The position numbers and the translations under genes were made by a program. Of a stretch of DNA of 64,000 bases, positions 453-30,289 are shown one piece after another (position 1 is the stretch's first letter; every line of letters begins with the position of its first letter). A model generated the notes under the pieces. The model was not told the DNA's origin, searched no databases, and was given only the letters and a program-made list of their open reading frames with translations. Origin of the DNA: Gammaproteobacteria bacterium (GTDB taxonomy: Bacteria; Pseudomonadota; Gammaproteobacteria; Pseudomonadales; JANQJO01); the NCBI GenBank assembly GCA_031409375.1, contig JANNXD010000073.1:3486-67485 (forward strand). The letters run 5' to 3'.

Positions 453-1580
453 TTAAAAGGCCGTCTGCTCCAAAACCAAACAAGCTGCCGAGTAGCCCGC
501 GCCAAAAGAGCTGAGCATACCCAATTCACCAACTTGAAAATCATGTTGATATTCATGAAAAGCCACTAACGAACCCGCAGAGCTGGTATTAGCAAAACGA
601 TCCAAAATAATTGGCGCTCGCAACGCCTCAGGATCATAACCCAATATTTTTTTCATAATCAACAAATTCATATTGAGATTCGCCTGATGCAACCAAAAGC
701 GTTTAATTTGCGAGGGCAATAACTGTTGCCGCAATAAATGCTCCGCCAATAACTCTGAAACCCATGCCACAACATCTTTAAATGCTTTACGACCATTTTG
801 ATAAAACGTTTTGTCACGAGCTTGCTGCGATTGGGGCGTGCAACGATTTAAAAAACCAAAATTATTGCGAATATTACTGGAGAACTGTGTTGACAACTGC
901 TGCGATCGAATTTTAAAAGCCCGTGAAAGACGAACTTCATCTTTATGTTGCACAACCATCGCTGCAGCAACATCGCCAAAAATAAAATGGCAATCTCGAT
1001 CTCGCCATTCTTGATGCCCTGAAGTGATTTCTGGACTGATCACCAATACATTACGCGCAGTGCCAGAAAAAATTGCAGTATAAGCATTGTGCAAACCAAA
1101 AGTACCTGACGAGCAAGCGACATTCATGTCATATGCAAAACCACGACAACCTAATGCCGCTTGCACTTCAATCGCAATGGCAGGATAAGCACGCTGCAAG
1201 TTAGAACAAGCCACAATAACACCATCAATTTTATCTGCTGACAAATCGGCATTATGGAGCGCTTGGCGAGCGGCATTGACCGCAAACTCAGCCTGCAAAC
1301 TCAAAGCTTCATCCGGTCTTTCAGCAAACAACGGATGCATAACGAGCGGATTCAAAATGCCATTTTTTTCAATCACAAACCGATTTTTTATACCCGATGC
1401 TTTTTCAATAAACTCAGAGCTCGATGGCTGGAGTGTTTCGCGTTCTCCCGATGCAATTTCTGTTGCATAACGATGATTGCATTGCTGAACATACTGATTA
1501 AAGGCTGCAACTAACTCTTCATTACTAATCTGATACTCAGGTACAGCAACACCCGAGGCCGCAATAAAAACCTCAGCCAT
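453..1580 (-). CDS. Beta-ketoacyl-ACP synthase III-like (FabH family, long form)
   Basis: Thiolase-fold KAS III motifs are present: NVACSSG (active-site Cys), WLHQANLNMN (His) and FANTSSAGS (Asn). The ATG at 1580 has AAGGAG 8 nt upstream, so it is preferred over the GTG at 1589. Confidence 0.8.
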   Translation of the reverse strand: MAEVFIAASGVAVPEYQISNEELVAAFNQYVQQCNHRYATEIASGERETLQPSSSEFIEKASGIKNRFVIEKNGILNPLVMHPLFAERPDEALSLQAEFAVNAARQALHNADLSADKIDGVIVACSNLQRAYPAIAIEVQAALGCRGFAYDMNVACSSGTFGLHNAYTAIFSGTARNVLVISPEITSGHQEWRDRDCHFIFGDVAAAMVVQHKDEVRLSRAFKIRSQQLSTQFSSNIRNNFGFLNRCTPQSQQARDKTFYQNGRKAFKDVVAWVSELLAEHLLRQQLLPSQIKRFWLHQANLNMNLLIMKKILGYDPEALRAPIILDRFANTSSAGSLVAFHEYQHDFQVGELGMLSSFGAGYSAACLVLEQTAF

Positions 1581-1618
1581 GATGACCACTCCTTTTATTC
1601 ACTTTACGATCATTCACT

Positions 1619-3403
1619 TTAAGCTGGCACGCGCAACATTTTTCTAAGAATTTTGCCGACATTTGATTTTGGTAGCTCTTGACGGAATTCCACATACTTA
1701 GGCACTTTATACGCCACCAGTCGCTGACGCGCATATTGAATGACATCTTGTTGACTTAAAGTACTTCTTGACGCCACCACAAACACCTTGACCACTTCGC
1801 CACTTTTTTCATCCGCAACACCAATGGCTGCACATTCACGAATATCGGGATGAGTAACCAGTTCATCTTCAATTTCATTAGGATACACATTAAAGCCAGA
1901 CACCAAAATCATGTCTTTAAGACGATCAACAATCCGAATATAACCATCTGCTTGAATAACGGCGATATCACCTGTTTTTAACCAACCTTCTTTATCAAAA
2001 ATCTTAATGGTCTCATCATCCCGCTGCCAATACCCTTTCATGACTTGCGGACCCTTCACACAAAGCTCACCAGGCATGTCAACACCCAGAACAACACCAT
2101 TCTCATCAACGACTCTAACATGTGTGTCTTGCACAGGAAGACCAACAGAACCAATTTGAATAGCCTCAGGAGGATTAACAGAAACAACAGGTGCCGTTTC
2201 TGTCATACCAAATCCTTCACATATCTGACAATGGGTGATCGCTTGCCATTTTTCAGCAACCGATTTCTGCAATGCCATCCCACCTGCAACCGTTATTTTT
2301 AAATGTGAAAAATCGACTGAAGCAAAATCAGGATGCTCGCATAGCGCCAAAAATAAAGTATTTAAACCCGCAAATGCTGTGAACGGCCATTTTTTCATTT
2401 CCTCAATAAAACCTGCCAAATCGCGCGGATTGGTGATTAGCACACTATGATTACCAGACTCGATCATCGCCATGCAATTAACTGTAAAAGAAAAAATATG
2501 ATAAAGCGGCAAAGGCGTCATCATAATTTCTTTGCCTTCTCGAAAATTGCTCCAAACACCCCGAATCTGTAGCATATTCGCAATTAAATTACGATGCGTC
2601 AGCTCTGCGCCTTTCGATATGCCCGTTGTGCCACCGGTATATTGCAACACAGCAGTTACATCCGCATTTTCAGGACAATAACGAACCAACCGATGTTTGC
2701 GCCCCTGAAGCAGCGCACTGTTTAACGTGATTGCCGTGGGCAGTTCATATTTCGGCACCATTTTTTTGACATATTTGACAGCGGCATTAATCAATCTGTT
2801 TTTAGGAAAAGGGAGTAGATCCGCCAGCTCAGTCACTATCACTGTTTTAATCAATGTATCGGGAAGTGATTGCTCAACACGATCGCCAAAATTCGCTAGC
2901 ACGACCAAGGCTGTCACACCAGCGTCATTAAACTGATGCACCATTTCACGCACCGTGTAGAGTGGATTGGTGTTGACGACAATTAAACCTGCACGCATCG
3001 CTCCCAACACACACACAGGAAATTGCAGCACATTCGGTAATTGAATCGCGATGCGATCACCTGGTTTCAAATGCGTATAGTTTTGCAAATACACGGCAAA
3101 CTGACGCGTCAGCTTTTCTAAGCGTCGAAAACTAATGGTATAACCCAAATTAGAAAATGCTGGCTTATGCGCAAATTTTTCACACGCGGTTTCTAACACT
3201 TCAACAATTGACTGGTAGCGATTCAGATCCATGTAAGTATGCAACGCAGATGAAAGGTGATTGGTTGGCTTGATTGTATTAATCACTTCACTTTCTCGCT
3301 TAGATTTTGATTGAGAAGCATCGATTATCTTCAACACCCCCTGTTGCGCCCAATTTCCTGCCGCCTTCATACTAGCCATCCCTAGTGACCCAATAAATCG
3401 CAC
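1619..3403 (-). CDS. fadD: Long-chain fatty-acid--CoA ligase (FadD-like)
   Basis: AMP-binding motifs YTGGTTGISKGA, GFGMTE, TGD and the C-terminal KSNVGKILRK are present, and NRYQSIVEVLE resembles the FadD N-terminus. The start is uncertain (GTG 3403, ATG 3379 or ATG 3370). Confidence 0.8.
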   Translation of the reverse strand: MRFIGSLGMASMKAAGNWAQQGVLKIIDASQSKSKRESEVINTIKPTNHLSSALHTYMDLNRYQSIVEVLETACEKFAHKPAFSNLGYTISFRRLEKLTRQFAVYLQNYTHLKPGDRIAIQLPNVLQFPVCVLGAMRAGLIVVNTNPLYTVREMVHQFNDAGVTALVVLANFGDRVEQSLPDTLIKTVIVTELADLLPFPKNRLINAAVKYVKKMVPKYELPTAITLNSALLQGRKHRLVRYCPENADVTAVLQYTGGTTGISKGAELTHRNLIANMLQIRGVWSNFREGKEIMMTPLPLYHIFSFTVNCMAMIESGNHSVLITNPRDLAGFIEEMKKWPFTAFAGLNTLFLALCEHPDFASVDFSHLKITVAGGMALQKSVAEKWQAITHCQICEGFGMTETAPVVSVNPPEAIQIGSVGLPVQDTHVRVVDENGVVLGVDMPGELCVKGPQVMKGYWQRDDETIKIFDKEGWLKTGDIAVIQADGYIRIVDRLKDMILVSGFNVYPNEIEDELVTHPDIRECAAIGVADEKSGEVVKVFVVASRSTLSQQDVIQYARQRLVAYKVPKYVEFRQELPKSNVGKILRKMLRVPA

Positions 3404-6281: not shown

Positions 6282-7460
6282 TTAGAACTGCTCATCACCC
6301 GTCGGCTCAATATGTGGCTCATGATTAATAGCCTGGCGCTTCTCTGCGGTCGCATGATAAACCTGATAACGGGCACGGTTTTGATTGCCAAGGGGACGAT
6401 GCGCAGCGATCGCGTGCCACGGATTAAAACGCAAACTACGGGCAAAGGCTTGTTGCTGGCTCGAATTAAAGGTTTGCATGGGAATCTCGAGCGTCGCCAC
6501 GTTAATGAAGGGCGATTCTCTTTCTAACCATTCCACCGAGGCATCTTCAATCGGCATCCGGTAGGGATCGGTTTGGAGCTGCACGGCGATATCGAAGATC
6601 ACAGAGCGTTTTTTTAAAGTTTTGATCATCGCATCGCGCAGATAGTTATCACTCAATTTGTTAAGCTTAGTTTTTTTCTCCACGCGCGGTATCATCGAAA
6701 ATTTCATCGCTTGACCCTCGCCCATTAAAAACGGCGTGCAGCTAAAATAGCGCACCTCTAGAGGATTGGCATACAAGCGGGCATACAAGCCTTGCATAAT
6801 AGCATCAAGCCAATGAGGCGCCATTGGATTGATGAAATACCAAGCGGGTGTACCCCGCCCAATTTCTTGCTGCAGAATTCGATTGGCCTGAATATTCGGC
6901 GTGGTAAAAGTTGGACAACTGATGCCGAGAAAATCTTGCGTATGCTGTTCTTCGTCCATCAGTTTTTTGCCGGGGACACGCATCACTTTAATACCCATAC
7001 TGAGAATGCCATTGTCTTGTGGATCAGGCACCACCAACGGACCAGGCCCACCAAAACGAACATAAGCCGGAAAAGTTTTTGCTTGTCGGAACAGTCCGAC
7101 TTTTAAATTTTTGGGCAAAGAATCGAGCACGGTAAATTCCGCTTTTACTACACCGTAAGTTTTAGTGTTGCCGGCACGCTCAGCAATGCGCCCGGTTTGT
7201 TGATACTGAGCTTCTAAAAAACGATTCATGCTCGCGGTAATATCGTCAACCAGCTGCTGCTCATTGGGCAAGCGACGTTCTTGGGCAATCGCCAAACACT
7301 GATCCGCCGGATGTAAGTGGGTAATGCGAATTAAACTTTGGGTGATGGCCTGTAAAGGAGCACGACAATAGGCATCAAAGGCATCACGATAATACACATC
7401 TAACGGCCGTGTTTTTGCCATAAAGGTTTCGGTCAGCCGCTGCGCTAAAACACGTATCAT
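6282..7460 (-). CDS. Catalase-fold haem protein (catalase-related, short form), paralogue A
   Basis: By-eye alignment to the catalase core: ERAGNTKTYGVVKAEFTV against ERVVHAKGAGAFGYFEV, AYVRFGG against AVRFSTV, DFLGISCPTFT against DLVGNNTPVFF, and C-terminal NRARYQVY against the proximal R...Y region. It has about 390 aa, so it lacks the extensions of true catalases. Confidence 0.6.
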   Translation of the reverse strand: MIRVLAQRLTETFMAKTRPLDVYYRDAFDAYCRAPLQAITQSLIRITHLHPADQCLAIAQERRLPNEQQLVDDITASMNRFLEAQYQQTGRIAERAGNTKTYGVVKAEFTVLDSLPKNLKVGLFRQAKTFPAYVRFGGPGPLVVPDPQDNGILSMGIKVMRVPGKKLMDEEQHTQDFLGISCPTFTTPNIQANRILQQEIGRGTPAWYFINPMAPHWLDAIMQGLYARLYANPLEVRYFSCTPFLMGEGQAMKFSMIPRVEKKTKLNKLSDNYLRDAMIKTLKKRSVIFDIAVQLQTDPYRMPIEDASVEWLERESPFINVATLEIPMQTFNSSQQQAFARSLRFNPWHAIAAHRPLGNQNRARYQVYHATAEKRQAINHEPHIEPTGDEQF

Positions 7461-7471
7461 AATAACTCTCT

Positions 7472-8923
7472 TTAACTCACCAGGTCAGTTAACAAAAACT
7501 GCAACGCCGATTTGCTCGGCAAAAAGAAATAAGCGCCACCACGGGTGCGTACAAACGCTGGCAAATCACTGACTTTTTGACGCACAGGACACGCTTGCAT
7601 GGTAAAGTCATCCGTCGCGCCGGATAAACGTTGCGCCACTCGACCCCGTGAACCAATGATCGGATCTGGATCTTGGTATAAACCATTAAAGTTTGGATTG
7701 TTCGCCCAGGTGTACTGCACAAACTCAAATTGCCGCGTGATATTGGCATTCAAACAAATAAAATGTAGGCCACGATCTTGATTGTCAACTTTACCGGCTG
7801 CAATTTTTTTTAAAAACTCCGTTGGCGACATAGAGGCATCAAACGGCGCACCATAAGCGCGGCCACGTCGTAACAAGCGATGCCGATCACTAAACGCCAT
7901 CGATTTTTCTGAACCCGGTTCAGGTGGTAAAGAGTCACGTGGGTTAGTCCGACGAATATGCGCTCCCAACGGGCAACGATAACCTTCCGGATCTTCCTGA
8001 TGATAAGCAAACGCATCCAACGCTTTTAAGTCTGGCGCATCTTCATCGGGTGCCTTCACTAAAGGCGCACCACTGGGCCAACGACCTACCATTTTGGATG
8101 CCAACTTCACTGGATCTATGTCCGCTTTTTCGCCTGCTTGTTGCAACCAGTGCCAGAAACCCGCTACATCCTGCTGCAATTGACGAAATACCAGATAAGT
8201 TCCATTTTTGCCAAGATCTTTTAACGCGCTGCCTTCAAGATCGACAGGTAAGCAGTTTTGCACATCCAGCTTCGCATCCACTTTGGGGCGCTGAGTGTAA
8301 TAGCCATACGCATTTTTATAACCCAAGACAAATTCGCCCAGCGCTACCCCCTTGGCATTGTCTTTAGCGTTCGAGTCAAATTCTGCAATATAGGGTTGGG
8401 CAATGCCGTCTTGAAAACCAAAGTGTTCCTTTTGCTGCGGCAATGATTCACTATCCAGACGCTGTTGCAAAAGCAAACCCGCTGCCGGTAAAGCCTGCTG
8501 AATCTCATCAACCGCTTTTTCTAAATGCGGCCAATCAACGGCATACAACATAATCAACAAATGCAGCGACTGCTGATGCCCCCATTGCCAATGCTCTGGC
8601 GCCTGATCACCTTCATCCCCCAAAATATGGCGACGATGCGGTGTGTTCATTCCGGCACGAAATTCATCAGCAAAACCTTTGATAATATTTTCAGGGACAC
8701 ATAGCGCCTGTAGACCTTGCGCCGTCAGCGCGATATTCATCGCCAATTGTTCAGGTTTTTGCGTGGCCACCGTTAACAACGATAGCTGCTGCGTCAAATA
8801 TTTTTTTGCTACCACGACATCGGTAATTGTAAGCAATAAATAACACGCCGATGGTAAATTACCGTAGCCTCGCACCACCAGCGCCTGTAGATCATTCCAA
8901 TCTTGATCAGATAACTGATTCAT
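7472..8923 (-). CDS. DyP-type (dye-decolorizing) haem peroxidase, long form
   Basis: EHFGFQDGIAQP (GxxDG motif, nt 8394-8429), GAHIRRTNPR (proximal His region), LLRRGRAYG, and the C-terminal GGAYFFLPS. Confidence 0.8.
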   Translation of the reverse strand: MNQLSDQDWNDLQALVVRGYGNLPSACYLLLTITDVVVAKKYLTQQLSLLTVATQKPEQLAMNIALTAQGLQALCVPENIIKGFADEFRAGMNTPHRRHILGDEGDQAPEHWQWGHQQSLHLLIMLYAVDWPHLEKAVDEIQQALPAAGLLLQQRLDSESLPQQKEHFGFQDGIAQPYIAEFDSNAKDNAKGVALGEFVLGYKNAYGYYTQRPKVDAKLDVQNCLPVDLEGSALKDLGKNGTYLVFRQLQQDVAGFWHWLQQAGEKADIDPVKLASKMVGRWPSGAPLVKAPDEDAPDLKALDAFAYHQEDPEGYRCPLGAHIRRTNPRDSLPPEPGSEKSMAFSDRHRLLRRGRAYGAPFDASMSPTEFLKKIAAGKVDNQDRGLHFICLNANITRQFEFVQYTWANNPNFNGLYQDPDPIIGSRGRVAQRLSGATDDFTMQACPVRQKVSDLPAFVRTRGGAYFFLPSKSALQFLLTDLVS

Positions 8924-9002
8924 TCAACATCCTTTTTAAATTTTTTAAATGAGTTGATCATCCACTTTATAATCTCACCAAACATTACAATCTCATAAAC
9001 CC

Positions 9003-10424
9003 TTACAATCTCGCCAACCATTGTTGCGCTTGACGTTCATTCATCTCACCTTGAAGCCCCTGACGTATCGCCGCGTTATTCGCGATATTCACAGCAGTCA
9101 AATGCCCGTAGGGCGTATACCAAACATCTGTGTCCAGTTGATGATTGCCTAAAAAATCTTTAAATTTCTGTTCGTTGCGAGCACCATCCATCACTAACCA
9201 ACGTGTTGCAGGATAACCTTGACCATTACTGAATACCAAATTTAACCCCCAAGCCACCTTGTCAACAAAATCGACCATGTAGCTTTCTAAACTACCGTCG
9301 TAATTGCTCGTAAACAACAACCGACGATCATCATCAATTAATACCCAACGGGCAAAATGAATGGTATCGACGCCTTCTAAACCTAAAAACGGCACGCCTG
9401 CTAAATTTCCTTTATTAAACACGTGACGCAAACTGGCATGCACCACTGACAAGGCAACTTTCACCGTGGTCTTACGTACCCAACCTGATTTTAAATAACC
9501 AACAGCAGAGAATTGGTTATGCGTATACACATCTTCTGGTGCACGCAACTGCGTTAAACGCAACAAAGGCGGACGCCGTCTTTCTTCTTGATCTTTTGAT
9601 TCCTTGGTTTGCAATACCAGCAGCCAGGCCAATAGTAACGGCCAAAACCATGTCACGACTAACGCACCAAGAAAAGCCAGCACCACTAAACGTAATTGTT
9701 CTTTGGCTTTCCACCAAAAAGAGGGCTGTGCGGCAGGTGCTAATGCCCATAATAAATGCGGATTTTTTTTGATAAAAGCAATAACCACTTTGCGCAGCTC
9801 ACGCGCTGAGGAAAGCATTTGTACATCGACTTGCTGCAAAAAAACTTGAATGGCTTGGCGAAGTTGATCTTCTTGCACGATTTGTTTAACACCACGGCCA
9901 ATGGTATTAATATAAAAGGCTTGTGCTGGGATCAGCTTTTCCGTTAGAAAAACTAAGCGTGTTGCATAGTTGCGTCTATCCGCTTCAGGATAACCTTCGC
10001 AAGCACCAAATACATCATCCAAACCTCGTCCGGCCTTCATTACCAGTTCGCTTAAAAAATCGTGCACCGAGCCATCCACATTTGCCATTAACACCAGGCT
10101 TGAGCCATAGCGCTCGGGGTGATCCGCACCAGGCAGAATCAGCAAGCGGGCAAAGTGTAATGAGTCCTTAAATAAACCAAAAGGTAGAGATTGATTGCGA
10201 ACCACATTTTCACTGATGCGCTTTAACGTCTCTCGCAACTTGGCTTCTTGCTCGAGGTTCAATTCAGCGCGAACCGTCAGCGGATTTTGCGGTTGCTGAT
10301 TAAACTTCTGCAGACGACTCACCAAGGGTTCTAACACACTAAAAGCTGGAATATTTAACAAGGGTTGCAAAGCGTCCACGGAAAATCCTTTTTTAACTAA
10401 ACCATTACATTTGAGCCAGTTCAA
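9003..10424 (-). CDS. Membrane protein of unknown function with an internally duplicated HFAR...DGS module
   Basis: Two related modules: LHFARLLILPG..LVLMANVDGSVHDFLSELV and IHFARWVLIDDDRRLLFTSNYDGSLESYMVDFV. They flank a hydrophobic stretch, LRLVVLAFLGALVVTWFWPLLLAWLLVL. The likely real start is GTG at 10379, which has AAGGA 7 nt upstream; the track start at 10424 is TTG. Confidence 0.55.
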   Translation of the reverse strand: MNWLKCNGLVKKGFSVDALQPLLNIPAFSVLEPLVSRLQKFNQQPQNPLTVRAELNLEQEAKLRETLKRISENVVRNQSLPFGLFKDSLHFARLLILPGADHPERYGSSLVLMANVDGSVHDFLSELVMKAGRGLDDVFGACEGYPEADRRNYATRLVFLTEKLIPAQAFYINTIGRGVKQIVQEDQLRQAIQVFLQQVDVQMLSSARELRKVVIAFIKKNPHLLWALAPAAQPSFWWKAKEQLRLVVLAFLGALVVTWFWPLLLAWLLVLQTKESKDQEERRRPPLLRLTQLRAPEDVYTHNQFSAVGYLKSGWVRKTTVKVALSVVHASLRHVFNKGNLAGVPFLGLEGVDTIHFARWVLIDDDRRLLFTSNYDGSLESYMVDFVDKVAWGLNLVFSNGQGYPATRWLVMDGARNEQKFKDFLGNHQLDTDVWYTPYGHLTAVNIANNAAIRQGLQGEMNERQAQQWLARL

Positions 10425-10480
10425 TCGATGTTGCGCAGATCAATTGCACTGATTGCGCCGTCCCCAGCTGTGTGCGTTCA

Positions 10481-10522
10481 ACCCCACCCTAGCCCTCCCC
10501 GTGTCAGAGGAGGGAATGAAGC
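10481..10522. repeat. REP-like intergenic element with a short hairpin
   Basis: ACCCCACCCTAGCCCTCCCCGTGTCAGAGGAGGGAATGAAGC. CCCTCC (10493-10498) pairs with GGAGGG (10509-10514). It resembles the GGGTGAGGG/GAGAGGG class of extragenic palindromes seen in many proteobacteria. There is one copy, inside the operon gap. Confidence 0.35.
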
Positions 10523-10570
10523 GTTTTAACACTCAAAAGCGAAGTTTTTTTGCCTGCGCATCACCTGTCA

Positions 10571-11059
10571 TTAAGCGGCATTCGCAAATGGACACGCGGA
10601 AGCTGAAGCTTCAACACAGGTTTCCAGCGCAAAATCCAATACGCGCTTGTTACCCCACCACACTTTACCTAAATACAAACCGGGTTCGACTTCTCGGATT
10701 TCATCGCGAATTTTTTGCGCAAAAAAAGAGGTTTTGGCGTAATCAATCACAATAGTTTCTTTTCCATCTAGCCAGCTAATATCACGATAAACTTTAGCCA
10801 CTATCGAATGCACACCTAAAGGTGACACTTTATTAACCAGCACACCTTTATCTTGATCAAACAAATCAAATACCTTACCTTGCCAAGCCACTCGACGCGC
10901 AAACTTCGCAAACAAATCGGGAAACGCCGCGCCAGTTAAAATCGCAGTACCACGCGTATCGCCTTGTGGAATGGCACCGGGTTTGGCTTGCTTATAAATA
11001 GTATCCAACTCTTCACGAGACATGGATAACCACTCGCTGACTTTAACATTACTGCTCAT
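10571..11059 (-). CDS. Hypothetical small protein (162 aa), translationally coupled to the upstream catalase-fold gene
   Basis: Its start overlaps the stop of the 11056..12201 gene by 4 bp (ATGA). There is no signal peptide. VAWQGKVF and IDY...IRDEIREVEPGLYLG weakly recall GXWXG/DUF4334-type proteins; that family assignment is low confidence. Confidence 0.5.
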   Translation of the reverse strand: MSSNVKVSEWLSMSREELDTIYKQAKPGAIPQGDTRGTAILTGAAFPDLFAKFARRVAWQGKVFDLFDQDKGVLVNKVSPLGVHSIVAKVYRDISWLDGKETIVIDYAKTSFFAQKIRDEIREVEPGLYLGKVWWGNKRVLDFALETCVEASASACPFANAA

Positions 11060-12201
11060 ACACTAACTCCTGTAACTGTTGGTTGTGAACTGACGGAGGG
11101 ATTGACAAGGGTTCCCAAAGGTAATGTTGATGCTGAGGGTAATAATGACGAACCTAATATAGCAGGCGGCAGCGATTGACGCCGAAATTCAGCCATCTGC
11201 GCATACACTCGTTGACGAACTCGATTAATGCCGCCCAAGGGTTGATGCGCGGGCAAACATTGCCAGGGATTAAAGCTTTGACGTTCCGCCCGTGCGAATA
11301 CCGCTTCTTGCTGAAAATCTTGCAACGGAATACGAATACGCGCTACACGGTGAAACGGCGATAAAGATTCAGACCATAACACAGAGGCATCTTCAATCGG
11401 CATACGTTCCGCATCTAATTGAAACTGCACCGCCAGATCAAAACTCACCGTAGCGTTTTGCAAATGTTGCCGCATATTTTGGCGCAAATAATCGGGGAAA
11501 ATCCGCCAAGGCAACTCACTTTGGTAGTCAGATGTTGGAATGAGTTTATATTTTACTGCCACCGATTTTTGGGTGCCTAAGCGATAAGGCGTGGTACTCC
11601 AATAAGGAATATCAAAAGGACTCGTCGCATGGGTGCGCGCTAAACTTAAAATCTGTAATGCTCGCCAATGGGGATTGCGTGGATTAACAAAATACCACCA
11701 TGGTTTGTTTTGTGCCTTTGCCTCAATAAAAGCTAAAAAATCTTGTGGCGTACCGGCAAACAACACGGGATAACTATTCAAGATAAAATCTTGGTGATCT
11801 GACTTACCCCAAAGCTTATCACCAGGAACTTGATGTACTTTAATAGAGGCACCACGCAAATCTTTTTGCATGTCATTATCAGTACTTGCCGAAGCAAAAC
11901 GCATTACAGCTGGATAATGCCCAGGTTTAGCAAACAGACCTTGCGCTAAGGATTCTGGTAAGCCTTCTAACACTTCAAACTGCACATCAAAATAACCCAG
12001 CGTTTTAGCCTGATTAAAACGCCTGATCATACCGGGCAAAATCTTGCTCTTTTTTGCACTACGCGCCGTAATACGCTCAATCAACTGCACCATGCGCTTA
12101 GCAATATAAGCTTCATCCGCCAGCGGAAATTCCGCCCCCAATTGTGGGCACAAACGTTCAAGCGGCTGCTGATGGATCCGGGACCAAGCTATTGCTGTCA
12201 T
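11056..12201 (-). CDS. Catalase-fold haem protein (catalase-related, short form), paralogue B
   Basis: It shares its layout with 6282..7460: AKTLGYFDVQFEVL, AVMRFASAS, DFILNSYPVLFAG, MPIEDASVLW, and FNPWQCLPAHQPLGGINRVRQRVY (proximal R...Y region). Confidence 0.6.
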   Translation of the reverse strand: MTAIAWSRIHQQPLERLCPQLGAEFPLADEAYIAKRMVQLIERITARSAKKSKILPGMIRRFNQAKTLGYFDVQFEVLEGLPESLAQGLFAKPGHYPAVMRFASASTDNDMQKDLRGASIKVHQVPGDKLWGKSDHQDFILNSYPVLFAGTPQDFLAFIEAKAQNKPWWYFVNPRNPHWRALQILSLARTHATSPFDIPYWSTTPYRLGTQKSVAVKYKLIPTSDYQSELPWRIFPDYLRQNMRQHLQNATVSFDLAVQFQLDAERMPIEDASVLWSESLSPFHRVARIRIPLQDFQQEAVFARAERQSFNPWQCLPAHQPLGGINRVRQRVYAQMAEFRRQSLPPAILGSSLLPSASTLPLGTLVNPSVSSQPTVTGVSV

Positions 12202-12243
12202 GGTATAACTTCCATCATCATCTCAGTATCATTGCCTCACATC

Positions 12244-15168
12244 TTAAGGCTTAAAAGCGGGATCTTGCTCAGCGCCAGCGCGTGGTTTCCAGGCCAACGA
12301 ATAATAGTCACCGCGATCACGGGCCCAAGGATCAAAGGCATTTTTAACGGGCAACAACTCTTGTTTTAACTCAGGAATGTTGCGCATCAACAAACGCTTC
12401 ATCGGCGATACCGCTACCTTATGGCCATTGACCAACTCTGGCTCCATACAAATCGATTCACCCGCTGCGGTCGTTTCCAATGGGTATGGACATCCGGCTA
12501 ATGGGCCATTGTGATTGACCCAATTGACCCCCAAGTTGGAATAAAATTCTGGGCGAAAACTCGACGTAAAGAAACGGTCGCTAAATAAACGTCGCGATGC
12601 ATTGATAATAAACACATGGAACTGGGTTTCGGAAATAGCATAACCATGGGGTCGGGTATATTCAGCCAACCAACCCACTACCGTATCAACGTCTTCAATA
12701 TTATCAACTGTGGCACCCTCTGCATGGCCTAAACAATCATTAATAAACTTGCCCTGCGCGTCTTTTTGTACCACCGAAATAATTTTACTGGCGTCACAGG
12801 TATGCGTTCCATAAATTTCACGCATCTTGGCAATCACTTTCTCTTGCGCTTTACGTGCCTGCGAACCCTCTGGTAAACGATGATCAACAAAATCGTCGTA
12901 GCTGGTTAAGGTTTTCAAACCAATCTGACGACGAAACTCGTTAAAGCGGGGAATACCGCGCTCGCGATCTCGAATTAAATCCAACGCCGCCACATCAATC
13001 TTACGCGTGGCTGAATTCAAATGTGGCATATCCAAGTTCTGCAAAAATTGCGGATGATTTTGCAACTGCAACAAAGCTAAGCGTTGCCGCCCCATACTTA
13101 AACCCCAGTTAGCCAGACCATGCTCACGCATTTGCGTCGTCGCCAAACCGCGTACCGTATCGACGACTGGGATTTTCATCGCCAATTGATTGGGTTGATT
13201 GCTGTCTCGATATTCAATCAAATCAGGTAACAGCGGGTGCAATCGATACACCGTCATAAATTCTTCAGGAAAATTAAATGGCGAGCCAAAGTGATTCACC
13301 CCCCCATTAACATGCTCAGGATTTTCTAGGCTCCAGACATCTTTTTTCCACCACAACTTGCCGGTTTCAATTTTATTACCCAAACCAAAAATACCGGCAC
13401 CCGAAGCAAACACTGAATACCAACTATTGGCATCATTTTTACTTGAACGTTTAAAGGCACCCGCCACACGATCAGAGGTACGCGCTAACACCGACTCATC
13501 TTGGCCAATGATTTTTTTCACCGCTCGACTCGAGGGGCTTTCATCTTTGGAATCAAACAAACCAAACCAGTTAGAGTTCATGCCTTTATACAGCGGTTCG
13601 CCGTACAGCAACTGCGTGGTCCATTCAATGGTATGAATTTTTGCTATCTCAGCAGTCACTACTAAACGGGCGATATTAAATAACTCTTCATCAGACACAG
13701 CACTATATAAAATGGGCTGTGTAGCAGCATCGGGCGTACGCAAGCCAGAATCATCACTCGGATGCAGTTTTTGATAAGCACGGAAGCTCGCCACAAAATT
13801 GTTATGCTCACGCACAAACACATTGTGATAGAAACTCAGTCCAATGCTCCAATTATCCGGAAACGCGGCCGCTTCTTGACCCGCCCATTGCGGCTGACTG
13901 GGAACGCATGGGATTGATTGCGTTGACGTTTGGCCAACGGCACAACTGGCCATGATTGGAAGATAGCCATTGGGTTGCAACAAGCGAGCACGATCGGCAG
14001 GATCACGCAACACCCGCTTCACGGACGTTTCATCAAAACCATAAATTTGCGAACCATCCCACCAGGCGGTGTTAAAGTTTTTAAAGGTTTTTGGCGAGCG
14101 AGCCCATTGATCCTTGCCATCTTGTTTGAAAGTCGGCGGAGCACCTTGTTGATCGACTAAGGCCGCTTCCATACGATCGCCAGAACGACAACCCGATAAT
14201 TCAGCTTGCGAAGAAGCACAACCCGTTGGCAATAAACCAGGCTGGTTGCGCCCTTCTTTCATGTGCGTCAACCAATCATGGGTCATGAATTGAATCCAAT
14301 AAGCGGCCAACACATTAAAAAAAGGTGCTGATGCATAAGGACAATCTGCTTCGGCGGAGTAACCCGGCAACCCTTTACCTTGATGACAGCTTGCACTTTC
14401 AGCAGACGCCATGCGAGTGAATAATTGACGACTAATCAGCTGCGGATCGGGGGTCATCGCGTCGATACGTCCGCCATGTCGCGCTTTGGTCAAACTCGTC
14501 AATGCTTGATCAGGAAAGGTCGCTTCAAATTGCACATTACGCGCAAAGTCCATTCCTGCAGAACCCATCAAAGGGTTGTAGATATCATTACAAATACCAT
14601 TGATGGTACGCGCACGGATCAACTCGCCTCGACAAAGCTGTTGTTTATCAGCACCACCCACTGCAGCATAATACGGATGATTGGGAGATAACCGCATTTC
14701 ATCCCAAGTTTTAACCAATCGTCCTGGTTGATCACCTTTGCCAGTGACATAAGTTTTGTAGGTATAGTTATCAAACAAATTAAATTTAATCAGTTCAATG
14801 CGCTGGAACTCAAGATCCAGCAAGGCACCATCAACACCGCGGCCATTGGGTTTTAAATGCTCACCTAATAAAGTCAGTGCTTGCGGACCATCGTGCAAAG
14901 AGCTTGCATCGCCAGTTGCCCAATAATTTGACCAATCCACCCAGGGCGTAAAACGATATTGCACCGCTTTGTCACCACCGCGACAACGCGCAGTGGCCTC
15001 ATCTACCTTGCCATTAAAACGATCAGCGCGATCTTCTGGGACTTTTAATAATCCACCTTTGACCATTTTGGCACACGCCACCGTATCGGCATCTGCCAAC
15101 ACGCATTGACTCAAAATACTGATAAATACTGCAACTGAAGCAGTCGAAACAACCAACCAAGGTCGCAT
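12244..15168 (-). CDS. Secreted haem peroxidase/cyclooxygenase-superfamily protein, alpha-dioxygenase/COX-like fatty-acid oxygenase candidate
   Basis: N-terminal signal peptide MRPWLVVSTASVAVFISILSQCVLA. LAAYWIQFMTHDW (nt 14272-14310) matches the distal-His motif of plant alpha-dioxygenases. FMTVYRLHPLLPD (nt 13231-13266) matches the catalytic Tyr / proximal His YRxH motif of COX and alpha-DOX. GICNDIYNPLMG is also present. Confidence 0.75.
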   Translation of the reverse strand: MRPWLVVSTASVAVFISILSQCVLADADTVACAKMVKGGLLKVPEDRADRFNGKVDEATARCRGGDKAVQYRFTPWVDWSNYWATGDASSLHDGPQALTLLGEHLKPNGRGVDGALLDLEFQRIELIKFNLFDNYTYKTYVTGKGDQPGRLVKTWDEMRLSPNHPYYAAVGGADKQQLCRGELIRARTINGICNDIYNPLMGSAGMDFARNVQFEATFPDQALTSLTKARHGGRIDAMTPDPQLISRQLFTRMASAESASCHQGKGLPGYSAEADCPYASAPFFNVLAAYWIQFMTHDWLTHMKEGRNQPGLLPTGCASSQAELSGCRSGDRMEAALVDQQGAPPTFKQDGKDQWARSPKTFKNFNTAWWDGSQIYGFDETSVKRVLRDPADRARLLQPNGYLPIMASCAVGQTSTQSIPCVPSQPQWAGQEAAAFPDNWSIGLSFYHNVFVREHNNFVASFRAYQKLHPSDDSGLRTPDAATQPILYSAVSDEELFNIARLVVTAEIAKIHTIEWTTQLLYGEPLYKGMNSNWFGLFDSKDESPSSRAVKKIIGQDESVLARTSDRVAGAFKRSSKNDANSWYSVFASGAGIFGLGNKIETGKLWWKKDVWSLENPEHVNGGVNHFGSPFNFPEEFMTVYRLHPLLPDLIEYRDSNQPNQLAMKIPVVDTVRGLATTQMREHGLANWGLSMGRQRLALLQLQNHPQFLQNLDMPHLNSATRKIDVAALDLIRDRERGIPRFNEFRRQIGLKTLTSYDDFVDHRLPEGSQARKAQEKVIAKMREIYGTHTCDASKIISVVQKDAQGKFINDCLGHAEGATVDNIEDVDTVVGWLAEYTRPHGYAISETQFHVFIINASRRLFSDRFFTSSFRPEFYSNLGVNWVNHNGPLAGCPYPLETTAAGESICMEPELVNGHKVAVSPMKRLLMRNIPELKQELLPVKNAFDPWARDRGDYYSLAWKPRAGAEQDPAFKP

Positions 15169-15395: not shown

Positions 15396-16637
15396 ATGAT
15401 CGCTTTTCTTGAAGCTCAACGTGCAGGCTTATGGCAGCGCCAACATTGGTTGCCGAATATTTTATCCGGTTTATTGGTCGGCGTGGTGGCGCTGCCATTA
15501 GCAATGGCATTTGCCATTGCTTCCGGCGCAAAACCTGAACAAGGTTTGTACACAGCAATTATTGCGGGCTTTGTGGTGTCTGTTTTTGGTGGCTCACGCC
15601 TGCAAATTGCAGGACCGACCGGCGCTTTTATTGCGGTTTTAGCGGCCATCACCGCAAAATTTGGTATTGATGGCTTGCAGCTGGCCACATTAATGGCGGG
15701 CATCATGCTCCTGCTGTTCGGATTGCTACGACTTGGTAAGTTAATTGAGTTTATCCCCGCGTCTGTGATCCTCGGTTTTACCAGCGGTATCGGCATCATT
15801 ATTTGGGTAAGCCAGTGGCGAGATTTTTTTGGCCTACCGGCTATCACCGGCGAACACTTTCATCAAAAGTTTTGGCACCTACTACATGCCCTACCCCAAC
15901 TGCATTTTCCAACCACAATGTTAGCCATTTTTTCTTTAATCGTAACATTGTTCGTATCACGATTACCAAAGTGCGCTCGCTTACCCGGCCCACTGATCGC
16001 GCTGATCACCGGCACATTACTTCAAAGTTACTTTCACATTCCTGGCATCGCCACCATCGGTAGCGTGTTTGGTCAACTGCCTGCAGGCTTGCCACATTGG
16101 CAATTACCGCACGTTACCTGGCCCCGCGTTTTAATGTTAATCGGGCCTGCTTTTTCCATCGCATTGTTGGGCGCCATTGAATCACTGCTATCGGCCGTCG
16201 TGGCTGATCGCATGGCCGGCACACGCCATGATGCTAATCAAGAGTTAATCGGCCAAGGATTAGCGAATGTACTCACCCCCTTGTTCGGTGGTTTTGCTGC
16301 AACCGGTGCCATTGCACGTACCGCAACCAATGTCCGCAACGGTGCAACCGGTCCCCTTGCCGGTATCGTTCACGCCGCAACATTGGCGGCAATACTATTT
16401 TTTTTAGCCCCTTTAGCGGCCAATATTCCGCTCGCAACTTTAGCAGCCATTTTATTTGTCGTCGCCTGGCATATGAGCGAATTACCCCAAGTAGTGCGCA
16501 GATTACGCCAAGCATCCAAAAGCGATAACAGCGTTCTGATCATTACTTTTACACTGACTGTGTTTAGTGATTTGATCATCGCTGTTACCGCTGGTGTGCT
16601 GTTAAGCATTGCACTGAACTCGGTTCGACAAAAATAA
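15396..16637 (+). CDS. SulP family inorganic anion transporter, short form without a STAS domain
   Basis: LSGLLVGVVALPLAMAFAIASGA and multiple TM segments are typical of the SulP core. The protein ends right after the last TM segment at 413 aa. Confidence 0.75.
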   Translation: MIAFLEAQRAGLWQRQHWLPNILSGLLVGVVALPLAMAFAIASGAKPEQGLYTAIIAGFVVSVFGGSRLQIAGPTGAFIAVLAAITAKFGIDGLQLATLMAGIMLLLFGLLRLGKLIEFIPASVILGFTSGIGIIIWVSQWRDFFGLPAITGEHFHQKFWHLLHALPQLHFPTTMLAIFSLIVTLFVSRLPKCARLPGPLIALITGTLLQSYFHIPGIATIGSVFGQLPAGLPHWQLPHVTWPRVLMLIGPAFSIALLGAIESLLSAVVADRMAGTRHDANQELIGQGLANVLTPLFGGFAATGAIARTATNVRNGATGPLAGIVHAATLAAILFFLAPLAANIPLATLAAILFVVAWHMSELPQVVRRLRQASKSDNSVLIITFTLTVFSDLIIAVTAGVLLSIALNSVRQK

Positions 16638-24351: not shown

Positions 24352-26247
24352 TTAGAAACGATCACCTCGTAGATTTTTAACCCTCATAAACAAATAATCC
24401 GCACTCACCTGATGAGGGGGGATCATATCGCCAATCACGGCATGGATACGAGCACCCAACTTTTTTGGAATCTTCCGAAAAGCGCCTTTTCCAGAACGAC
24501 TAAAAAAGCTACCCCATAATCCACAAAGTGCAATCGGCACAACAGGTACCGGAGTGGTTTGGATAATTTGCTCGATGCCTTTTTTAAACTCATTCATTTC
24601 ACCGTTGAGCGTAATTTTTCCTTCTGGAAAAATGGCCAGTAGATCACCGGCTTCTAATGCAGTAGCGATTTCTATAAAAGCTCGTTGAAAAGTTGCTGAA
24701 TCCACATGACGCGAATGAATCGGAATGGCTTTACCGGTACGAAAAATAAAATTGAGCACCGGAATATCATAAATCGGTTTAAACATCACAAAACGAATCG
24801 GCCTGGGTGTGATGCCGGCTAAGATCAACGCATCCACATAACTGACATGATTGCAGACGATAACCGCCGCACCATGCTCGGGAATTTTCTCCACACCATC
24901 AATGCGAATACGATAAAAACTGTGCATCAATGCCCATACCAAAAAGCGCATCGCAAACTCTGGCACCCGATTAAAAATATAAATCGCCACCAGCAAATTC
25001 AATAGCGCGAGCACACCCAGAAAAGTGGGGATGGATAACTGAGCAATGCCTAACCCCACTACACCCAAGAGTGCTGCCAGCACCATAAAAATGGCATTCA
25101 TAATATTGTTAGCAGCAATCATTTGTGCGCGATCACGCTCCTCAGCTTGTTGCTGCAACATAGCATACAAAGGCACGATGTAAAAACCACCAAAAACACC
25201 CAAACCAAAAAAATCCACCACCACTCGCCAGCTCGCCGAATGCGACAGCATTTCACGAAAATTCTGCAATGTGATGGGCATAGAAGCAGTGGGCATAAAA
25301 ACATCACCAGCCCACCATAAATCCAGACCAAAAAAACTTAACCCCAATGCACCAAAAGGTACTAAACCAATTTCCACTTTTTTACCGGATAAGCGTTCAC
25401 ACAACAAGGAGCCACATGCCACACCGAAGGTGAACATGCATAACAATAAAGTGACCACCGTGTTATCGCCTAATAACACAGCTTTGGTATAAGTCGGAAT
25501 TTGCGTTAAATAAGCGGCACCCAATAACCAAAACCAAGAAATGCCGAGAATAATTAAAAACACCGTTTTATTATGTTTGGCTTTACCTAATAAACGAAAA
25601 GTTAACGTAAACCAATTGCCGGGAATATAACTGGCGACGCCCAAGGATGGCGCCGGTGGAATGTAGCGACTGGCCAAATAACCACTCACTGAAAAAAACA
25701 GCACACACACTGCCAGCGCCCATTCAGCATGCGGCAAACTGATCAGCAGCCCACCCACCAAAGTACCGAATAAAATGGCAACAAAGGTACCCATTTCGAC
25801 CAGTGCATTGCCTCCCAACAATTCTTGTGAACCTAGATGCTGCGGCAGCAATGCATACTTAACCGGGCCAAAAAAAGCCGCTTGGGTTCCAAGTAAAAAC
25901 AGCACTAGCAACATGCCCCATAGGCTCTGCAACATAAAGGCCAGCACACCCACCAACATCACCAAGATTTCAGCAAATTTTACGCGCCGCATAATGGCCG
26001 ATTTTTCATAGCGATCCGCCCACACGCCTGCCATGGCTGAAAACAAAAAAAACGGTAGTATAAAAAGGCCTGCAGCAACATTTACCCATATTGCGGTATG
26101 TTCACCAATCATCGCCACACCCGAAAACGTCATCCACACAATCAGCGTATTTTTAAACACATTATCGTTAAAGGCACCGGTGAACTGTGCAATAAAAAAT
26201 GGCAAAAAACGCCGATTTTTTAACAGAGAGAACTGGTTATGACTCAT
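24352..26247 (-). CDS. Lysophospholipid transporter (LplT-like MFS) fused to a PlsC-type acyltransferase
   Basis: About 12 TM segments of MFS type in the N-terminal part. The C-terminal part has VCNHVSYVDALIL (HX4D acyltransferase motif) and IFPEGK. Confidence 0.8.
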   Translation of the reverse strand: MSHNQFSLLKNRRFLPFFIAQFTGAFNDNVFKNTLIVWMTFSGVAMIGEHTAIWVNVAAGLFILPFFLFSAMAGVWADRYEKSAIMRRVKFAEILVMLVGVLAFMLQSLWGMLLVLFLLGTQAAFFGPVKYALLPQHLGSQELLGGNALVEMGTFVAILFGTLVGGLLISLPHAEWALAVCVLFFSVSGYLASRYIPPAPSLGVASYIPGNWFTLTFRLLGKAKHNKTVFLIILGISWFWLLGAAYLTQIPTYTKAVLLGDNTVVTLLLCMFTFGVACGSLLCERLSGKKVEIGLVPFGALGLSFFGLDLWWAGDVFMPTASMPITLQNFREMLSHSASWRVVVDFFGLGVFGGFYIVPLYAMLQQQAEERDRAQMIAANNIMNAIFMVLAALLGVVGLGIAQLSIPTFLGVLALLNLLVAIYIFNRVPEFAMRFLVWALMHSFYRIRIDGVEKIPEHGAAVIVCNHVSYVDALILAGITPRPIRFVMFKPIYDIPVLNFIFRTGKAIPIHSRHVDSATFQRAFIEIATALEAGDLLAIFPEGKITLNGEMNEFKKGIEQIIQTTPVPVVPIALCGLWGSFFSRSGKGAFRKIPKKLGARIHAVIGDMIPPHQVSADYLFMRVKNLRGDRF

Positions 26248-29922: not shown

Positions 29923-30289
29923 GTTGCACTCCCTAGTAAATAAAAGGATAAAAGACAAATGGCCAAATAACTAAATAAATGGCCATCTGCAATTAGGAAA
30001 AACGGTGCAAAAATTCTTGAAAATTACACCTCCTTATTTTATTCAATCAAGGTGCTTATTAAACAACGGACTCAATGGTAAGTTCCGACAGACGGGGAGT
30101 GCAATGAACAATAATGAGTGAAAATACCGATTTATAGCTAAACTCATAATCATGAAACATAGCCGCAATGTTCAAACCATGATTCGCAGTCGTATTAAGG
30201 GAATTCATCAAAACCTATCTTCAAATACTTCTCAAACAGTTAAAATTTTTGCCACTTCCGAATAATAAGTGGTTAATTTATCCGCGATT

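Follow-up and report, generated by a model that had tools for sequence, protein, structure and literature searches.

What might a bacterium do with six tightly packed genes that encode an alpha-dioxygenase-like haem protein (g1), two catalase-related proteins (g2 and g6), a predicted calycin beta-barrel (g3), a predicted membrane-anchored protein with two ABM-like halves (g4), and a DyP-type peroxidase (g5)? The question is raised by a stretch of 64,000 nucleotides from a Gammaproteobacteria bacterium (NCBI GenBank assembly GCA_031409375.1, contig JANNXD010000073.1, positions 3,486 to 67,485 of the forward strand), referred to here in its full length as the window. The names g1 to g6 denote six minus-strand open reading frames (ORFs), numbered in transcription order, that lie head to tail at 6282-15168 of the window; their individual coordinates are given in Table 1. 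On balance, homology and predicted structure lead us to think it probable that this operon encodes a modular lipid-oxidation pathway, most likely one that acts on free fatty acids. Three observations point in that direction—g1 carries the carboxylate-binding residues of the plant alpha-dioxygenases (alpha-DOX), g3 has a predicted lipocalin/FABP-like fold, and the neighbours of related loci are of lipase, phospholipase, and FadL type.

The original prediction made from this DNA had described six tightly packed same-strand genes, and the ORFs and their gaps match that description. A GGGAGAG ribosome-binding site lies ahead of g1; the gaps are 42 base pairs (bp) between g1 and g2, 79 bp between g4 and g5, and 11 bp between g5 and g6, while g2 and g3 share a 4-bp ATGA overlap, an arrangement that amounts to translational coupling. 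The gap between g3 and g4 depends on where g4 begins, and measures 146 bp from a TTG start or 191 bp from a GTG start. The GTG at 10379, which gives a protein of 458 amino acids (aa), is most likely the true start because its AAGGA-N7-GTG context is kept in an 87%-identical relative (locus L081). The 458-aa form is also the one present in the protein collection, and g4 of L081 is likewise 458 aa long.

The argument begins with g1, which matches the animal haem peroxidase family PF03098 at 1e-61. Its best solved relatives are the alpha-DOX of rice (4kvj, 3e-58) and of Arabidopsis (4hhr, 2.5e-54); plant alpha-dioxygenases are the only strong matches among solved structures, and no cyclooxygenase is found among the matches to them. 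Two signatures had been proposed as carrying the distal His and the catalytic Tyr with its proximal His, WIQFMTHDW and YRLHPLL, and both are present, at residues 291-299 and 641-647. The first aligns with the distal-His helix of the rice enzyme (WIQFMVHDW), and the YRLHP of the second with YRMHS of 4kvj, which holds Tyr379 and His382; the entry for the rice Y379F mutant, 4kvl, differs from g1 at exactly the catalytic-Tyr column. Two further segments of g1 have counterparts in rice alpha-DOX, AKIHTIEW in AKVHTIDW and ASRRLF in ASRRLE, and the carboxylate-site equivalents are His512 for His311 and Arg859/Arg860 for Arg558/Arg559. His311 and Arg559 are named as key alpha-DOX residues in the title of a paper cited in PMC8720084. 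In an alignment of g1 relatives, His297, Tyr641, His644, His512, Arg859, and Arg860 are conserved in all 77 of the 77 sequences, and the proposed homology of the Tyr/His motifs to the alpha-DOX catalytic residues is borne out.

Several features set g1 apart from the plant enzymes. It begins with what looks like a Sec signal peptide, in which MRP precedes a hydrophobic core of 20 residues and then VLA|DA (hydrophobic N-terminus at residues 4-25), and it has an N-terminal Cys-rich extension of ~280 aa that is absent from the plant enzymes and is conserved as well as the catalytic domain. Ten Cys residues are invariant or near-invariant (at least 99%) in the same 77 relatives. Taken together, these features make an enzyme of the alpha-dioxygenase type that is exported and rich in disulfides the best reading of g1. 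We also considered a Mn-oxidising peroxidase of the MopA type, and set it aside, on general knowledge of MopA and not on an alignment, since the alpha-DOX Tyr and carboxylate site are kept.

The second and sixth genes bring in the catalase fold. Taken alone, g2 matches PF00199 (Catalase) at 3.8e-5, below the gathering cut-off; a profile built from 19 orthologues has the coral allene oxide synthase (cAOS; 1u5u, 9e-12) as its best match in the PDB, and also finds yeast catalase A (1a4e, 1.5e-9) and the mycobacterial MAP-2744c (3e4w, 2.5e-8). The proximal Tyr333, the haem-binding Arg residues, and the distal Asn142 are retained, and R61, R101, N142, R329, Y333, and R340 are invariant. For g6 there is no direct match in Pfam, PF00199 included, or in the PDB; its assignment to the catalase fold follows from its homology to the g2 family, which extends over the full length (hhalign probability 100%, E 3e-77, 356 columns), and its proximal Tyr368 and Arg residues are invariant. 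Both of the catalase-fold genes of the original prediction are therefore recovered, g2 through its family profile and g6 through g2.

The distal side of the haem pocket is where both proteins depart from their relatives. The distal His, which in true monofunctional catalases forms with an Asn the pair essential for H2O2 dismutation, is missing from the alignment of both g2 and g6—the position is held by an invariant Gln64 in the g2 clade (RFNQxK, against eRrpHAK in catalase) and by an invariant Asn98 in the g6 clade (RGGNTK, against RrpHAK). The distal His preceded by Thr that marks cAOS and the catalase-related hydroperoxide lyase (cHPL) is equally absent from the two: where cAOS has T66-H67, g2 has N63-Q64 and g6 has G-N98, and the Thr neighbour is gone as well. 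The distal Asn (Asn137 of cAOS) is invariant as N142 in g2; in g6 the residue is Ile, Val, Cys, or Thr. The core fold, proximal Tyr, and haem-binding Arg of the cAOS/cHPL type are present in g2 and, by homology, in g6; linkage to a fatty-acid dioxygenase gene is shown by g2, with g6 linked or fused to a DyP instead. A search among 1.84 billion representatives found 3595 relatives of g2, and the best 150 were aligned together with g2 and g6 of the window. Across these 152 sequences the Arg and Tyr ligands are near-invariant, and the distal position is His in 124, Gln in 14, and Asn in 5. Because so large a part of the superfamily keeps the His, its loss is, on the alignment, a derived trait specific to the two operon-linked clades. 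Judging from the conserved ligands, both g2 and g6 would bind haem, and four haem enzymes in the operon are plausible.

With four of its six proteins in peroxidase or catalase superfamilies, the operon might instead be an island for defence against peroxides and peroxidised lipids, or for their detoxification, in which g1 and g5 would serve as peroxidases, g2 and g6 as peroxide scavengers or haem buffers, and g3 as a scavenger of oxidised lipids, with no dedicated product. The cluster moves as an accessory island among unrelated genomes with varied flanks, as such a role might suggest, and marine and algal-associated hosts are exposed to oxylipins. We nevertheless find this explanation unlikely. 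The distal His that catalase turnover needs is the very residue that g2 and g6 lack and most of their aligned relatives keep; the radical Tyr and the substrate carboxylate site of g1 are typical of a dioxygenase, not of a peroxidase; and the locus has neither a linked regulator of the OxyR or PerR type nor a linked thiol peroxidase, the sole recurrent regulator being a LuxR-type gene in Methylococcales.

A lipid substrate is also suggested by g3, the small gene coupled to g2. All 2582 of its homologues are unnamed, and a place for it in a known Pfam family was sought and rejected: g3 has no match in Pfam or NCBIfam, 39 members gave none in Pfam at E values up to 1, and there is no sequence-level match in the PDB. 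Its AlphaFold2 model (pLDDT 74, pTM 0.73) is a beta-barrel preceded by helices. The top Foldseek match, and the only one with an E below 0.001, is an uncharacterised protein, 4mve (E 3e-5, TM 0.59-0.64); further matches are a bile-acid-binding protein, lipocalins, and FABPs, the lipocalin/FABP matches having probabilities of 0.9-0.98 at TM 0.35-0.45. A role as a lipid carrier is plausible from this predicted fold. The lipid context that had been proposed for the locus is supported from two sides, by this lipocalin-like model and by the lipase, phospholipase, and FadL-type neighbours of variant loci.

No match in Pfam or NCBIfam was found for g4 either, which has 2876 homologues. Its AlphaFold2 model (pLDDT 84, pTM 0.84) consists of two ferredoxin-like alpha+beta halves with a long helical hairpin between them; the only hydrophobic segment of the protein, residues 242-273 of the 473-aa ORF, coincides with this hairpin, and g4 models as membrane-anchored through it. 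The top Foldseek match is WhiE-ORFI (9lmn, ABM/SchA-like; E 1.6e-5, probability 1.0), followed by the tandem-ABM proteins 3mcs and 3f44; the likeness is at the level of the fold only, with modest TM-scores of 0.39-0.47, and chlorite dismutase appears only marginally among the matches, below the ABM proteins. An HFAR(F/W) motif, its His invariant, is present in both halves. These motifs resemble C-terminal strands of DyP, yet the idea that g4 is a degenerate DyP was rejected, as a profile-profile comparison with the g5 family gave a probability of 0.1%.

The fifth protein, g5, exceeds the TIGR01413 cut-off of 100.5 with 118.7 bits (3e-34), and its family profile matches 8re3 over the full length at 6e-77, with further matches to the ancestral D-type DyP 7anv, AnaPX (5c2i), and DyP2 (4g2c). 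The GxxDG motif expected of a DyP is found as GFQDG with Asp172, and D172, the proximal His322, R352, and R353 are invariant. By these marks g5 is the DyP that was predicted, canonical and of the long C/D type. Halomonas salifodinae and Bisbaumannia pacifica carry g1-g2-g3 and g4-g5-g6 as two units that diverge from each other, and there one ORF of 875-877 aa encodes both g5 and g6; these fusions argue that the two work as a pair. Long proteins of the wider g2 superfamily tell a similar story, with a catalase-like domain fused to RoxA-like dihaem cytochromes in four cases and to DyP in two (P0426, P0448, P0461, and P0481, and P0465 and P0472); the two fusion partners are both of the alternative back-end partners of the operon. 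A further, eukaryote-like protein, P0375, joins ankyrin and LsmAD domains to a catalase-like domain.

Whether the six genes belong together can be judged from their company elsewhere. In a scan of one genome per species, 279 genomes had a g1 relative (best identity 65%), and 80 g1 loci were fetched and annotated by tblastn and ORF clustering. All six genes surround g1 in 18 loci, 16 of them in the same colinear order, and five more loci hold a partial set that ends at a contig end; one locus has g1 to g5, seven have g1-g2-g3 only, two have g1-g2 only, and 45 have g1 without any of g2-g6 within 10 kb. In 31 of the 80 loci g2 is immediately downstream of g1. Complete loci occur in Pseudomonadales, Cellvibrionaceae, Methylococcales, Crenothrix, Parahaliea, Halomonadaceae, and Sulfurovum, and so span Gammaproteobacteria (Methylococcales included) and Campylobacterota, with unrelated flanks; in Desulfuromusa, a locus ended by a contig edge carries g1-g4. 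The prediction that these genes would be conserved together thus holds, whereas the notion of the six as one unit stands only in part: the full set recurs, yet it is built of separable blocks (g1, g1-g2-g3, and g3-g4-g5-g6) with interchangeable partners. In Methylococcales only, the six-gene cluster is preceded by a divergent LuxR-family (GerE domain) gene of ~356 aa (L021, L024, L031, L037, L045, and L052), which is a candidate for a dedicated regulator.

The partners that replace each block are informative. Six of the seven g1-g2-g3-only loci (Alteromonas, Arenicellales, and Kangiellaceae) continue into two tandem RoxA-like dihaem cytochromes c, as do two related loci; each of these cytochromes has two CXXCH motifs and an N-terminal anchor, and the dihaem back end of these clusters must be periplasmic. 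Solo g1 genes in Acidobacteriota often adjoin a gene for an ABHD18-like hydrolase, a Tle1-like phospholipase, an FAD-linked oxidase, or a metallo-beta-lactamase-fold protein. Conversely, g3-g4-g5-g6 stands alone, without g1 and g2, in Scytonema hofmannii, and Reticulibacter has g3-g4-g5 without a g6 homologue, beside a short animal-peroxidase homologue. In Marinobacter caseinilyticus and Hahella ganghwensis, g3-g6 follows a GMC oxidoreductase whose stop codon overlaps the start of g3; alpha/beta-hydrolases and a DUF676-like protein flank this variant, and in Hahella a gene for a FadL-type (FadL/Toluene_X) porin lies ~6.5 kb upstream. The best reading of this pattern is that g3-g6 forms a cassette fed by interchangeable oxygen-activating front ends—an alpha-DOX with g2 here, a GMC oxidase in Marinobacter and Hahella.

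The GMC variant can also be taken to suggest a different chemistry, in which g3-g6, perhaps the whole operon, acts on aromatic, quinone, or polyketide-type substrates; the oxidase or dioxygenase would supply peroxide to the DyP in the manner known from the oxidation of lignin and dyes, the ABM protein would be a cofactor-free oxygenase, and the barrel would bind a small molecule. Fungal GMC oxidase/peroxidase systems pair an H2O2-producing oxidase with a peroxidase, and the GMC oxidoreductase that stands in place of g1 and g2 resembles such a pairing; the best structural match of g4 is from a polyketide spore-pigment cluster and the next are tandem ABM proteins annotated as 'putative monooxygenase', while the long C/D-type DyPs nearest to g5 are known for dye and phenolic oxidation. 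Against these stand every fatty-acid carboxylate-binding residue of alpha-DOX, all kept by g1, the resemblance of the g3 fold to lipid binders, the membrane hairpin of g4, and a recurrent neighbourhood of lipases, phospholipases, and a FadL-type porin, not of aromatic-catabolic genes. An aromatic substrate therefore seems to us improbable, about as much so as the detoxification island discussed above.

The separability of the blocks raises the further question of whether two or three independent units (g1 or g1-g2-g3, and g3/g4-g5-g6) simply lie next to each other without a common substrate. Each block is found on its own elsewhere, and g4-g6 of the window is nearer to the g1-less versions of Hahella and Marinobacter (55-59% identity, or 55-73% for g3-g6) than to those of other six-gene loci (33-48%). 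The window also has an insertion of ~160 bp between g3 and g4 that is missing from L081, where the spacer is 21 bp. Set against these points, the 18 loci in which the six-gene set recurs come from different orders and phyla and have flanks that are unrelated to one another; the back end exists in two versions, deeply diverged, and both are found joined to g1-g2-g3; g3 is the sole component that the g1-g2-g3 and g3-g6 blocks share; and the intergenic distances are short. A chance adjacency of independent units is, in our estimation, a slightly poorer prospect than either of the two alternatives above.

The insertion itself had been labelled a REP-like element, and that label could not be verified. 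It holds one 8-bp GC hairpin; no second copy of it occurs within the 64-kb window, and its folding is no better than that of shuffled sequence (z -0.66), for which reasons a REP or a MITE was rejected. A small mobile element is one possibility and an internal regulatory site another, and either would bring into question whether g4-g6 is co-transcribed with g1-g3 here. No RNA family of Rfam was found in the window.

If the favoured reading of a fatty-acid oxidation pathway is correct, the genes can be arranged into four steps. The first, for which homology argues strongly, would begin with the export of g1 by its Sec signal peptide; the enzyme, with about five disulfides and haem b held by His644, would grip the fatty-acid carboxylate with His512, Arg859, and Arg860, and a Tyr641 radical would add O2 at C-2, as in plant alpha-dioxygenase. 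2-Hydroperoxy fatty acids decay to Cn-1 aldehydes in alpha-DOX chemistry (PMC8720084), and the 2-hydroperoxy product of g1 would likewise give the one-carbon-shorter aldehyde and CO2, or be reduced to the 2-hydroxy acid. In the second step, to which we attach moderate confidence, g2, which in Proteobacteria is almost always found after g1 and would be a haemoprotein with the catalase fold and a Tyr ligand, would take or channel the peroxide made by g1, or its product, by a chemistry that has Gln in place of the usual distal His. In the third, suggested by the predicted fold, the g3 barrel coupled to g2 would carry the hydrophobic intermediate. The fourth, the weakest of the series, would have g4-g5-g6 as a separable, peroxide-consuming unit on the surface of the membrane, where it would carry the oxidation of the lipid product further. 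Physiologically, the pathway could serve the catabolism of exogenous lipids by alpha-oxidation, or the production of an oxylipin or aldehyde signal.

A number of points weigh against this scheme. One concerns compartments: a sequence scan finds an export signal in g1 and none in g2, g3, g5, or g6, so that g1 is apparently periplasmic or secreted and the other four apparently cytoplasmic. An unstable 2-hydroperoxide would then need to cross the membrane, and its direct hand-over from g1 is not assured. The peroxide reactivity of g2 and g6 is uncertain too, with the distal His gone from both and the distal Asn from g6 as well—any peroxide chemistry of theirs may be homolytic or non-canonical, or the two may do no more than bind, and they could be haem- or ligand-binding partners instead of enzymes. 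The confidence of the g3 model is moderate only, the best fold match of g4 belongs to pigment biosynthesis and not to lipid metabolism, and the 45 loci with a solitary g1 are more than half of those fetched. Scans for promoter and terminator consensus sequences gave counts at or below shuffle expectation, and are uninformative on a single transcript.

How the locus relates to characterised systems can be asked gene by gene. The plant and cyanobacterial alpha-DOX/PIOX enzymes (4HHR and 4KVJ; CalDOX and LepDOX, PMC8720084) share with g1 the superfamily and the catalytic and carboxylate residues; they are ~620-650 aa long, whereas g1 has 974 aa, with its signal peptide, its Cys-rich extension, its ten invariant Cys, and several insertions, and sits in an operon with five partner genes. 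Uncharacterised alpha-DOX-family sequences were noted in Proteobacteria and Acidobacteria by Kim et al. (PMC8720084), who characterised cyanobacterial ones only. In Nostoc punctiforme, a linoleate 10S-dioxygenase adjoins a catalase-related 10S-hydroperoxide lyase (Brash et al. 2014, as described in PMC13049297 and PMC9579011). As far as that description goes, the pair resembles g1-g2 in that a gene for a COX-family dioxygenase is followed by one for a small catalase-related haemoprotein; it differs in that g1 is of the alpha-DOX type, with carboxylate-proximal oxygenation, not a 10S-dioxygenase, and in that g2 has Gln for the distal His. The key residues of coral cAOS, T66-H67 among them, are listed in PMC5617202. 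Compared with this enzyme (1U5U/3DY5) and the catalase-related hydroperoxide lyase, g2 keeps the equivalents of R64, R102, R360, N137, and Y353; T66-H67 is changed in g2 and g6, the Asn is gone in g6, and neither protein is fused to a lipoxygenase. The idea that the operon extends the two-gene logic of such systems is sound as far as the order of genes is concerned, a dioxygenase gene and then a catalase-related gene; it is an analogy only, not family membership, because neither g2 nor g6 has the distal His or the Thr beside it. Catalase folds without this His, together with the mismatch of compartments, speak against reading the operon as a mere copy of either the Nostoc or the coral system.

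The back ends have known counterparts of their own. The oleate-diol synthase operon of Pseudomonas aeruginosa, PA2077/PA2078, encodes two enzymes of the dihaem cytochrome c peroxidase family (PMC4496055) and may be likened, by protein class, to the RoxA-like back end of the g1-g2-g3-only loci; dihaem cytochrome genes of that kind are not present in the window. The long DyPs (8RE3, 7ANV, AnaPX 5C2I, and DyP2 4G2C) resemble g5 over the full length, with the GxxDG Asp, the proximal His, and the Arg; g5 is distinct in that a catalase-fold protein without the distal His always accompanies it, in some cases within one fused chain, and in that g4 comes ahead of it. The ABM and dimeric alpha+beta-barrel proteins (9LMN, 3MCS, and 3F44) are like the predicted fold of both halves of g4, which differs in having no sequence-level family match, an inserted hydrophobic helical hairpin of ~40 residues, and an HFAR(F/W) motif in each half.

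Full-text literature searches, themselves of incomplete coverage, found no published description of this gene combination, of the g3 and g4 families, or of His-less catalase-related proteins linked to DyP, in keeping with the initial impression that the combination was not that of a described system. It is possible, though we put this forward tentatively, that the locus represents a widespread and undescribed lipid-oxidation system, with a core g3-g6 cassette of carrier, double-ABM protein, DyP, and His-less catalase fold behind interchangeable front ends; it might then yield new oxylipins or aldehydes, or amount to a bacterial alpha-oxidation, and its His-less catalase folds might perform new peroxide chemistry.

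The remainder of the window offers some context. A SulP-family transporter gene lies upstream of the operon and divergent from it, and was rejected as part of the system since its conservation does not extend beyond the two closest relatives; a HAD hydrolase gene lies downstream and is convergent. Two lipid-related genes, one for a long-chain acyl-CoA synthetase and one for a KAS III-like condensing enzyme, are found 3-6 kb downstream, a linkage that is not conserved in other loci. Farther away, a 3203-aa hybrid polyketide synthase/nonribosomal peptide synthetase has the order AMP-binding (acyl ligase), carrier, KS, AT, carrier, class-III aminotransferase, condensation, adenylation, and carrier, an architecture typical of beta-amino-fatty-acid lipopeptide starters of the iturin/mycosubtilin type. 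The window also encodes an MFS transporter fused to an acyltransferase domain, which resembles lysophospholipid transporter/acyltransferase pairs, and a large ORF with no Pfam match at 1e-5.

Table 1. Coordinates of the six genes, of other features of the window, and of variant and fusion loci in other genomes (coordinates of the latter refer to the locus named)
Feature	Position	Strand	Description
g1	12244-15168	minus	974 aa; apparently exported alpha-dioxygenase-like haem protein, peroxidase-cyclooxygenase superfamily
g2	11056-12201	minus	381 aa; catalase-related protein, Gln64 at distal-His position
g3	10571-11059	minus	162 aa; predicted calycin (lipocalin/FABP-like) beta-barrel
g4	9003-10379 (GTG) or 9003-10424 (TTG)	minus	458 aa (GTG) or 473 aa (TTG); predicted double-ABM membrane-anchored protein
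g5	7472-8923	minus	483 aa; DyP-type peroxidase, long C/D-type
g6	6282-7460	minus	392 aa; g2 paralogue, catalase-related fold, Asn98 at distal-His position
Spacer insertion	10422-10581	minus	~160 bp between g3 and g4; missing from L081
Hairpin in spacer insertion	10482-10514		8-bp GC hairpin
SulP-family transporter	15396-16637		Upstream of the operon, divergent
KAS III-like enzyme and long-chain acyl-CoA synthetase	453-3403	minus	Downstream of the operon
MFS transporter-acyltransferase fusion	24352-26247	minus	631 aa
ORF	27721-29958	minus	745 aa
Hybrid polyketide synthase/nonribosomal peptide synthetase	51113-60724	minus	3203 aa
Marinobacter/Hahella variant	L085 4275-14696; L086 3143-14649		Three conserved unknown genes (~150-270 aa), alpha/beta-hydrolase, GMC, g3-g6, DUF676-like
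DyP/g6 fusion (Halomonas salifodinae, Bisbaumannia pacifica)	L075 5642-8269; L076 5639-8272		g5 and g6 in one ORF

The biology of bacterial oxylipins is thinly explored—to our knowledge, the characterised cases are few, and comprise the P. aeruginosa diol synthase pair, the Nostoc 10S-dioxygenase/lyase pair, and three cyanobacterial alpha-DOXs. The locus adds a concrete and widely distributed candidate pathway, with cultured carriers in Methylomonas, Halomonas salifodinae, Parahaliea, and Alteromonas, and with the back end alone in Hahella, Marinobacter, and Scytonema. By homology, it points to a first proteobacterial alpha-dioxygenase, and one that would be exported; alpha-DOX enzymes are of practical interest for the production of fatty aldehydes. 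Three families for which Pfam and NCBIfam have no model (g3, g4, and g6) gain fold assignments and a genomic context, and the signature families of the locus have ~2,500-2,900 homologues each. The two catalase-fold clades that have lost the catalytic His offer a test of what the catalase fold does without it, and small catalase-related proteins recur beside, or fused to, a DyP or a RoxA-like dihaem enzyme, which suggests a general partnership of two haem enzymes.

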